A stretch of DNA of 64,000 nucleotides. Source: Escherichia coli (GTDB taxonomy: Bacteria; Pseudomonadota; Gammaproteobacteria; Enterobacterales; Enterobacteriaceae). The stretch lies in assembly GCF_044324785.1 (NCBI RefSeq), contig NZ_CP172127.1; one strand, written 5' to 3'. This document shows positions 31,815 to 33,038 of this stretch, one piece after another; within the stretch, counting starts at the first letter, position 1, and each line of letters begins with the position of its first letter. The notes under the pieces were generated by a model, which was not told the DNA's origin, searched no databases, and worked only from the letters and a program-made list of their open reading frames with translations. The position numbers and the translations under genes were made by a program.

Positions 31815-33038
31815 TTATGGTATTATATTCTGATAATGATTTGATAAGCGAATTCTTTTGCCAGTTGGTATTTCTATTTCCACCCCATAATTTATAGTTT
31901 TTTCATCAGGTAGCGATCTCTTTAAATAAGGTGCGTATGACATTTTTTTAGGATGAAACGTCTCGTGTTGAAATATTTCGAATTGATATTCAGACATTTG
32001 TGCCCATTTTTGAATTCTATTGTATCGAGAGGGCAATGTGAATTTTTTAACTTGTTTGTAACATTCCTTTTGGAATTCTTGCTGATATTTTATTATGTCG
32101 TTGTATGAAAGATTGTTTACCCTGGTCTCTAATAATTCTATTATTGTCGAAGCAATTTCCGCTTTTGCTCTTAAAGAGTTGTCATTAATGGTTAATAATG
32201 TTGAAAATAAACCATTGATTTGTTTGTCAAGATATTGTTCATCTTTATGTAATTTTGTGATAGGGTATTCCTTATGTGAAAAAATAGTATCAAATAAATT
32301 TGCATCAGTGAAGTTTACATTAAGTAGATCTTCGAAATAAAACCTTGACAAGGTTAGAACGAACCCGGACAGATCCTGTCCTGTCATATTGAAATCAATA
32401 AAGTTGGTTCCAGCAAAGACTTTCATCTTGTTTTCATTTTCACTGTTCTCAATATACAACCTTATCATTTTTTGGTACAAGCTTTGAATATCTTTTATAT
32501 CAGTTGGTAAATCAGTTCGTTGCCCAGAAAAATTTTTATTTTCGGAAGAAACGGTTTGGACACTGAATCTTACTGGTATTCCCTCTTCTACGAGAATTTT
32601 AGTTATGATTGGCTTATTGGGCTTAGGATTAAAGACAACAATGATTTTAGATTCAGAGTTTTTATTCTTTTCGTATCTAATGTTATTAATCTGATTAAGT
32701 ATTGATTGTGTCTGTTGCGTAAGTGGTGTCGAACTTATCGTTTCAATGTTATTAATAAGACTTACAAGTTGAGCCACAACTTTTGAGTAGTCTGCATTTG
32801 TATATGTGGTGTTCGTGTGGCACGCATTAATTTGTTGGAATTGTTGTTGCGCTAAATCAAATTGTTCAGCGTTATATCCTTCTTCAGACAATGAAAAATT
32901 AATGGGTTGCTGTTCTTCCTGATTATCACAAGGCCACATCGGTGTGTCTGGTGTTTTAACATTGTCGGTATCTGTTGTGCGGTTATAAATATCGCCGTGA
33001 TATGTATTTATCATACCTGGGGTAAAGTCAATTGACAT
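31815..33038 (-). CDS. yhiS: Uncharacterised protein YhiS, intact 407-aa form
   Basis: Long AT-rich ORF between slp and the ars region; Q-rich N-terminus and pentapeptide-repeat-like stretch; no IS5 next to it here (K-12 has IS5 between slp and yhiS). Confidence 0.6.

Follow-up and report, generated by a model that had tools for sequence, protein, structure and literature searches.

The gene yhiS, which lies on the minus strand of the window studied here (a 64,000-nucleotide stretch of Escherichia coli contig NZ_CP172127.1, assembly GCF_044324785.1), is a real coding gene under weak, position-dependent purifying selection, because it holds a 407-codon frame at 33% GC (guanine plus cytosine content), keeps its length across alleles, retains an invariant Shine-Dalgarno (SD) sequence and ATG, and shows a corresponding ratio of nonsynonymous to synonymous divergence (dN/dS). 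Based on the comparisons described below, we consider it moderately probable that yhiS is a genuine, dispensable, silenced and weakly constrained Escherichia orphan gene, the product of which carries one short pentapeptide-repeat module, and that it has been lost repeatedly. The gene as such is already known, being annotated as a hypothetical protein in thousands of genomes and as a pseudogene in K-12, and no function has been assigned to it in any paper found in the searched literature. The new findings are modest: a steep peak of diversity, together with recurrent pseudogenisation, beside a near-invariant neighbour, as well as a divergent pentapeptide-repeat module that goes undetected by standard domain libraries.

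The yhiS reading frame and its distribution

In the window, yhiS is located between the ars/permease block and slp-dctR and consists of a single ATG-started frame of 407 codons plus stop (31815..33038, minus strand), while the open reading frames in the remaining five frames across this interval are all of 81 amino acids or fewer. At the composition of yhiS one stop is expected per 13 codons and the chance of 407 stop-free codons is approximately 1.5e-14; in 2000 shuffled versions of the gene the longest open frame had a mean of 74 codons and a maximum of 151. The intact 407-residue frame described in an earlier note on this DNA, made from the sequence alone, was thus borne out, and so was its AT-richness: the GC content is 32.6% (29.4% at third codon positions, GC3), as compared to 48% for the whole window, approximately 46-51% for the flanks and a GC3 of 46-58% for the neighbouring genes, which places the AT content of yhiS in the range of xenogeneic genes silenced by H-NS. 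The gene order arsC - yhiS - slp - dctR, with yhiS on the strand of slp-dctR, is the synteny of YhiS orthologues, and the identities of 80% to the IS5-free K-12 product and of 64-97% to other alleles are those of the YhiS orthologous group. Moreover, the initiation motif AATAAGGAAT(G/T)TTATG is invariant across all alleles examined, the most divergent one included.

A word-indexed search of 5.8 billion proteins found 136 YhiS relatives; the 120 relatives listed share 64-98% identity, each one with a named source is from E. coli or Shigella, and none carries a precomputed Pfam domain. With HMMER, 1.84 billion representative proteins contained one full-length cluster at 50% identity only. Foldseek against AFDB50 returned YhiS entries, apart from low-ranking matches to a 'DNA-binding protein' and to YjgL; the YjgL lead was dropped, as BLASTP of YhiS against K-12 YjgL gave no similarity (E = 0.85). 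No yhiS match was detected by tblastn in 50,697 phage records, and among plasmids only three multi-megabase records were matched, which are evidently chromosomes. Scans of species-representative genomes with peptide patterns and an exact 20-nt 5' motif found no locus, even in the E. coli representative, perhaps because this representative lacks the gene or because the collection was incompletely scanned, and are uninformative on other Escherichia. Taken together, yhiS is restricted in these searches to Escherichia, including Shigella. The horizontal origin suggested in the earlier note remains unproven: the searches yielded no donor and, beyond Escherichia/Shigella, no homologue in other organisms, plasmids or phages, and no mobility genes flank yhiS in the window.

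Allelic diversity and selection

Nearly all complete E. coli genomes (5416 of 5426) match yhiS, always on the chromosome, and 3997 cover at least 80% of the gene. The identity to the window's copy at the best place was 80-90% in 4017 genomes, 90-95% in 1208 and 95-99% in 189, with none at 99% or above and a best match of 98.0% DNA identity among the 5426. The E. coli alleles of yhiS differ by 2-23% in DNA, as compared to less than 1% for the neighbouring slp; across all genomes, the slp-dctR segment has 95-99.7% identity, and Slp has the same accession (WP_001057453.1) in all loci fetched. In a nine-locus alignment the nucleotide diversity was 0.04-0.125 in yhiS and 0-0.01 in slp, and the step between them falls in the 246-nt intergenic region separating the two genes. 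For instance, the strain carrying the allele with 64% protein identity is 99.3% identical to the window in slp, 99.4% in dctR and 97.9% in chuS, whereas its yhiS is only 77% identical.

Nei-Gojobori estimates for the intact alleles gave a mean dN of 0.08-0.09 and a mean dS of 0.18-0.23, with dS reaching 0.29 among ordinary alleles and 0.56-0.63 against the deepest allele. The medians reported for conserved E. coli genes are 0.002-0.003 for dN and 0.06 for dS (PMC4720273). With a protein divergence of approximately 30 times the species median, yhiS is among the most polymorphic fixed-position genes in E. coli. The overall dN/dS among intact alleles is approximately 0.44 and varies along the protein: constraint on YhiS is strongest over residues 177-316, where the ratio falls to 0.19-0.27 and which include the repeat module (0.21-0.25 in the windows that overlap it); residues 37-116 and 317-396 reach the maximum of 0.5-0.8, and the ratio exceeds 1 in none of the 40-codon windows. 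The alleles are mosaic: the four-gamete test fails for 28.5% of informative site pairs, and a PHI-like statistic shows much higher compatibility between adjacent sites than after permutation, a value reached in 0 of 1000 permutations. Despite this divergence, 15 allele clusters up to 24% apart in protein contain no indels and are exactly 407 amino acids long, the same length being kept in alleles 76-97% identical; only the deepest allele differs, with 410 amino acids resulting from one 4-residue insertion and one 1-residue deletion. This most divergent cluster (64% identity) includes isolates named only 'Escherichia sp.'.

Since dS is 3-10 times the species median, either old allele lineages persist or alleles were imported from other Escherichia lineages, via recombination through the conserved flanks. 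The deep lineages (dS 0.2-0.6) beside near-identical flanks, the mosaic alleles produced by recombination, the patchy distribution of intact copies and the deepest allele class shared with 'Escherichia sp.' isolates would all be in line with a conflict locus, i.e., a role in phage defence or inter-strain antagonism in which negative frequency-dependent selection keeps old alleles and entails frequent loss. We nevertheless regard such a role as very unlikely, given that dN/dS exceeds 1 in no 40-codon window, that no real PADLOC or PHROG match was obtained (the PADLOC defence models gave only Cmr5 at E = 0.034, with no qualifying stretch), and that neither a partner gene nor a toxin or nuclease domain nor a defence-island context was found. 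It is likewise quite unlikely, in our estimate, that the old lineages, some of them shared with 'Escherichia sp.' at a dS of approximately 0.6, are actively maintained via a variable external partner, which might be a host factor (type III secretion) or a phage component. Were this the case, the conserved pentapeptide core would be a scaffold, the variable blocks at residues 120-175 and 300-375 would be specificity surfaces, and the frequent loss of yhiS would belong to the same frequency-dependent dynamics.

Loss of yhiS across strains and in K-12

The state of yhiS was determined in 30 complete genomes taken at even steps down the identity ranking, a small sample from a biased collection. 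The 407-codon frame was open in 11 of them. The commonest lesion, present in seven, was the loss of one T from a T7 tract at codon 253, leading to a stop at codon 281 or 282 (one of these copies also has a nonsense codon at 115), and this frameshift occurs on at least two allele backgrounds. Two genomes carried a 371-residue form in which one A was lost from the tract at codon 364, two a K-12-type insertion sequence (IS) IS5, one an IS1 insertion, five only the first approximately 390 nt of the gene (one of the five being an O25:H4 isolate) and one a 21% remnant; the remaining copy had approximately ten homopolymer indels and is probably an assembly error. Thus, yhiS is intact in roughly 37% of genomes, a rough figure in view of the sample, and at least six lesion types exist. 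Disruption in most strains, which the earlier note had named as speaking against its own view of the gene, is roughly what was found (approximately 60% of the sample).

Public annotation of yhiS is inconsistent. The truncated form of 371 residues is entered as a normal protein, WP_001303709.1 (loci L004 and L011 of our comparison set), and in the two genomes with this accession the tract reads C4A6, as compared to C3A8 or C4A7 in other alleles. Conversely, a copy annotated as frameshifted (L010) has an open 407-codon frame. Taking the 'frameshifted' flags of the Prokaryotic Genome Annotation Pipeline (PGAP) at face value was rejected, as L010 is open and the approximately ten homopolymer indels of L007 are typical of long-read assembly error.

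The earlier note had placed an IS5 between slp and yhiS in K-12, with yhiS disrupted. The disruption by IS5 is correct, while its position is not: IS5T/insH11 lies inside yhiS at gene nucleotide 746 (an IS5 within K-12 yhiS is also reported in PMC8170033 and PMC11677980). When IS5 was removed in silico, the K-12 gene gave an open 407-codon frame with 80% identity to the window's protein and no gaps. In the K-12 locus (NC_000913.3, 3651291-3653713; L026), the element is inserted at TTAG, 8 nt upstream of the T tract that is the commonest frameshift site in other strains. In several evolution experiments, this IS5 was reported to mediate deletions that reached into arsC or spanned the entire acid-fitness island, and apart from reports on regulation and chlorhexidine, yhiS appears in the papers found only through such IS5-mediated deletions of neighbouring DNA.

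The frequency of loss also bears on whether yhiS is a relic that was functional in an Escherichia ancestor and is now neutral in all strains, so that intact copies would simply be those not yet hit and the constraint would be historical. The independent lesions in approximately 60% of the sampled genomes, a dN of approximately 30 times the species median, the lack of a K-12 phenotype together with silencing in K-12, and the failure of AlphaFold2 to yield a confident fold are compatible with this explanation. On the other hand, the absence of indels from 15 clusters of divergent alleles (with two small indels in the deepest allele), the invariant SD sequence and start codon, and a K-12 copy in which one recent IS5 is the only interruption of the frame speak against a neutral relic. 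Furthermore, a dN/dS of approximately 0.2 in the repeat core and of 0.5-0.8 elsewhere is the pattern expected of a folded protein. In our view a relic is unlikely, and we favour a gene that is still under weak selection.

The YhiS protein and its pentapeptide-repeat module

YhiS has a calculated mass of 47.5 kDa, an isoelectric point of 5.6 and a grand average of hydropathy of -0.62, and is thus acidic and hydrophilic. The maximal Kyte-Doolittle score (19-residue window) is 0.92, which indicates that it lacks a signal peptide or transmembrane segment, and the protein is predicted to be soluble. The Q-rich N-terminus described in the earlier note corresponds to a slight excess of Q (15.6% in residues 31-120, with 14 Q, vs. 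7.4% overall), and a polyQ tract is absent. Scans against Pfam, NCBIfam, PHROGs and PADLOC gave no real domain match, in agreement with the earlier statement that YhiS has no recognisable enzymatic domain. In the AlphaFold2 model, residues 117-200 fold into an antiparallel sheet of four to five strands and then a helix; this region also carries the most variable allelic blocks, e.g., DSVCQIIVVVNPEPNNP.

The central positions of ten consecutive pentads are occupied by L, F or M (F208, F213, M218, L223, L228, F233, L238, F243, L248 and F253), and none of 20,000 shuffles of YhiS reached a run of ten, the maximum being seven. Several i-2 positions of the pentads are non-canonical (K, F, Q, E). When a profile of 16 alleles was compared with the sequences of the PDB, the only matches were pentapeptide-repeat proteins, all over residues 202-256: Rfr32 (2f3l, E = 0.006, or 0.001 with a C-terminal profile), the thylakoid protein TL15 (3n90) and QnrB1. 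Using the same profile with HMMER against the 1.84 billion representative proteins, YhiS and its fragments ranked first, followed by approximately 20 multi-stretch matches over residues 178-328 (mostly 203-277) with E-values of 1e-8 to 1e-3. Fifteen of these were examined and all are pentapeptide-repeat proteins; five were recognised from their sequences by inspection, with Pfam support for one of them, and the other ten from NCBIfam matches. The alignments of YhiS to pentapeptide proteins are gapless over approximately 50 residues, and that to the multi-module protein P0162 extends over 112 residues (183-294) with short gaps and includes the 'LY..SY..K.L.G' linkers that flank the repeats, residues 256-277 aligning with the second one; therefore, the core of YhiS looks like one module unit. 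At the profile level, the repeat segment is thus homologous to true pentapeptide-repeat proteins. The strings quoted in the earlier note occur in YhiS, and its pentapeptide-like repeats are accordingly real as a run and are backed by profile homology to true members, while they are short (approximately ten pentads, or approximately 2.5 coils) and fall below the threshold of the Pfam Pentapeptide entry PF00805 (i-Evalue 6.2, residues 237-254); no NCBIfam family matched at E<=1.

The module may form approximately 2.5 coils of a right-handed quadrilateral beta-helix (Rfr fold) serving as a binding surface. AlphaFold2 modelled the repeat segment as helix or coil with a predicted local distance difference test (pLDDT) score of 26-37 (below 30 in the full-length model, 27-37 in that of the C-terminal half), at an overall pLDDT of 49 for the full-length allele alignment and of 43 for residues 176-407. 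As these alignments contain only close alleles, this failure is uninformative rather than negative.

Three multi-module proteins, P0149, P0156 and P0162, contain a module of approximately 95 residues that consists of a 'QLYSTxSYxxKDLxG' linker and approximately ten pentads; P0162 additionally has a weak PEP-CTERM match in Pfam (E = 0.011). Their module boundary motif is not part of the Pfam Pentapeptide entries, as far as our scans show.

The earlier note had seen in the repeats an architecture of secreted effectors and DNA mimics, and this was not supported: no PipB, PipB2, SopA, HECT-type effector, Qnr or MfpA model matched YhiS, while ordinary pentapeptide proteins match all of them. Salmonella and E. 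coli possess effectors with pentapeptide repeats, and a former substrate of the type III secretion systems ETT2 or LEE, with a pentapeptide beta-helix like that of PipB2, SopA/NleL or EspX and with its diversity derived from host interaction, would fit the module, the conserved, T/S/N/I/P-rich and apparently unstructured N-terminus, the lack of a Sec signal, and an AT-rich, H-NS-bound gene, as many effector genes are. However, the effector models NF011744, NF011743, NF007264 and NF011904 did not match YhiS at E<=1, whereas ten generic pentapeptide proteins all match them, below their cut-offs. In addition, the neighbours of yhiS are ars, the permease gene and slp rather than a secretion island or prophage, and the O157 locus tag is named in only one paper found, where it is described as an unknown gene at the border of the acid-fitness island (PMC9729726). 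There is no positive evidence for an effector beyond the pentapeptides and the conserved, apparently disordered N-terminus, and we judge this role highly improbable. A DNA mimic of the Qnr/MfpA type, which would protect or inhibit a topoisomerase, is suggested by the weak profile matches to QnrB1 over residues 206-256. It is effectively excluded by the length of the repeat and the lack of a model match: YhiS has approximately ten pentads, Qnr and MfpA consist almost wholly of repeats, their models of 183-221 positions gave no match at E<=1, and outside the repeats YhiS consists of helical and alpha/beta sequence that is unrelated.

Expression and genomic context

The only terminator-like hairpin in a scan of positions 31400-33700 lies upstream of yhiS (Table 1), and this suggests that yhiS may form its own transcription unit; in the same scan, no terminator-like site was found in the intergenic region between yhiS and slp. 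In K-12, the arsC/yhiS and insH11/slp regions are listed as H-NS-bound 'promoter islands' (PMC3661553), and yhiS and slp-dctR are named among the sites of high StpA affinity (bioRxiv 10.64898/2026.02.10.705075). Overproduction of YdeO in K-12 induced slp-dctR, and yhiS was not induced (PMC4222967). Neither deletion of K-12 yhiS nor its ASKA overexpression clone affected the minimal inhibitory concentration of chlorhexidine (PMC8170033), and no paper found in the searched literature addresses an intact allele. The H-NS silencing assumed in the earlier note is therefore supported by reported H-NS/StpA binding at yhiS, with the restriction that it concerns K-12, where the gene is broken. By analogy, yhiS is probably silenced by H-NS/StpA also in the window's strain.

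Table 1. Features in and around yhiS; positions refer to the window, residues and codons to YhiS and yhiS.
Feature	Position	Strand	Remarks
yhiS upstream non-coding region	33052..33618	-	presumed promoter; AT-rich, approximately 35% GC; diverges strongly between strains
Terminator-like hairpin	33424..33452	-	11-bp stem and T-rich tail; downstream of permease gene, upstream of yhiS; consensus scan only
Shine-Dalgarno region AATAAGGAA	33043..33051	-	4 nt upstream of yhiS ATG
Residues 1-50	32889..33038	-	conserved T/D/N/P-rich N-terminus; dN/dS 0.25 (residues 1-36); unstructured in AlphaFold2, pLDDT 25-38
Residues 40-116	32691..32921	-	mildly Q-rich (QEEQQ, AQQQFQQ, TQQTQ); modelled helix from residue 57
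Residues 117-200	32439..32690	-	only part modelled with moderate confidence, pLDDT 63-80
Residues 206-255	32274..32423	-	pentapeptide-repeat module; ten tandem pentads
Residues 256-407	31818..32273	-	C-terminal half, predicted helical; conserved motif INYGVEI...RIRLSxHYQNIIP
T6 tract (ACTATTTTTTCACAT)	32279..32284	-	T7 where the following C is T; loss of one T is the commonest frameshift, stop at codon 281
A7 tract, codon 364	31943..31949	-	loss of one base gives the 371-residue form
yhiS-slp intergenic region	31569-31814		246 nt
slp	31002-31568	-
Permease gene	33619-34632	-	Cys-rich loop
ArsR/SmtB-family regulator gene	34664-35023	+	divergent from permease gene
arsC, arsB	35146-36894
chuA-chuS	27199-30258		directly beyond dctR
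chuA 5'-untranslated region thermoregulator	27170-27201		Rfam shuA_thermo
AgrB-type antisense RNAs	37432-37515, 37666-37749		Rfam, above gathering score; dinQ region, upstream of arsR
GadY	11534-11647		Rfam, above gathering score
ES205	17427-17498		Rfam, above gathering score

Between arsC and yhiS, the window contains a permease gene with a divergent gene for an ArsR/SmtB-family regulator, and this pair is absent from K-12 and O157-type strains. The segment 33039-36900 is covered to at least 80% in 2225 of 5426 complete E. coli genomes, at identities spanning 87-98%. The arsC and arsB genes are 93.9% and 95.4% identical to those of a strain with 99.3-99.4% identity in slp and dctR, indicating that the variable zone extends upstream of yhiS. 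On the other side, chuA-chuS follow dctR, and the haem-uptake cluster is thus inside the acid-fitness island, as in loci L001-L004 and L022; in strains without the chu cluster, yhiD directly follows dctR.

Proposed role and comparison with known systems

We propose that yhiS, situated on the arsC side of the acid-fitness island, is a dispensable protein-coding gene and that its product is a soluble, non-enzymatic protein of approximately 47 kDa, in which a single module of approximately ten pentads is flanked by helical linkers and most likely acts as a small beta-helical protein-binding surface. The AT-rich gene and promoter would probably be held silent by H-NS/StpA under laboratory conditions, as indicated by the K-12 literature only. 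Being rarely expressed and unneeded in most niches, yhiS would be under weak selection, so that divergent allele lineages may persist and recombine into mosaics, and that repeated inactivation by homopolymer-tract slippage, IS insertion and deletion may occur, leaving the window's copy among the open minority. In this way, the high dN as well as the repeated loss would follow from weak selection on a rarely expressed gene.

Several observations weigh against this proposal. A dN/dS of 0.4, approximately ten times what is normal for E. coli, and the loss of the gene from most strains cast doubt on a present-day function, and weak constraint alone leaves a synonymous divergence of 3-10 times the species median unexplained. 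The silencing is taken from K-12, where yhiS is already broken. As to the module, the match to PF00805 is below threshold, and AlphaFold2 predicts no beta-helix from alignments that hold only close alleles.

While yhiS reveals no new mechanism or system, it offers an accessible case in which the evolution and death of silenced, lineage-restricted genes can be followed in nature, and, lying at the border of the acid-fitness island, it could also be used as a marker for high-resolution typing.

The closest known counterpart is K-12 yhiS itself (b3504, UniProt P37635), which is split by IS5T and, at the same locus, has 1224 nt without IS5 and a product with 80% identity. The window's copy differs from it in being uninterrupted, in belonging to a different mosaic allele and in being preceded by the ArsR-family regulator and permease that K-12 lacks. 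With pentapeptide-repeat proteins (PF00805), such as Rfr32, TL15 and QnrB1, YhiS shares A(D/N)(L/F)xx-like pentads with a central L, F or M every five residues; unlike them, it has approximately ten pentads within 407 residues of otherwise unique sequence and stays below the Pfam and NCBIfam thresholds. Among the PEP-CTERM-anchored multi-module proteins P0149, P0156 and P0162, the counterpart of YhiS residues 183-294 would be one module, consisting of a linker, approximately ten pentads and the next linker. These proteins have four to seven modules and a hydrophobic, signal-like N-terminus (read by eye), whereas YhiS contains a single module, lacks an export signal and is unrelated to them at both ends, and the hhalign probability of YhiS against a multi-module protein was only 49%. 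Like PipB, PipB2, SopA and the NleL/EspX effectors, YhiS combines a pentapeptide module with a larger non-repeat enterobacterial protein encoded by an AT-rich gene, but it differs from them in having neither an NCBIfam match nor a secretion-system or prophage context. Regarding its evolution, yhiS resembles the H-NS-bound, fast-evolving 'core' genes (Higashi et al., 2016; PMC4720273), as it is likewise AT-rich, reportedly bound by H-NS/StpA in K-12, located at a fixed site in nearly all strains and fast-evolving, and it goes beyond that class with a dN of approximately 30 times and a dS of 3-4 times the reported medians and with its frequent pseudogenisation.

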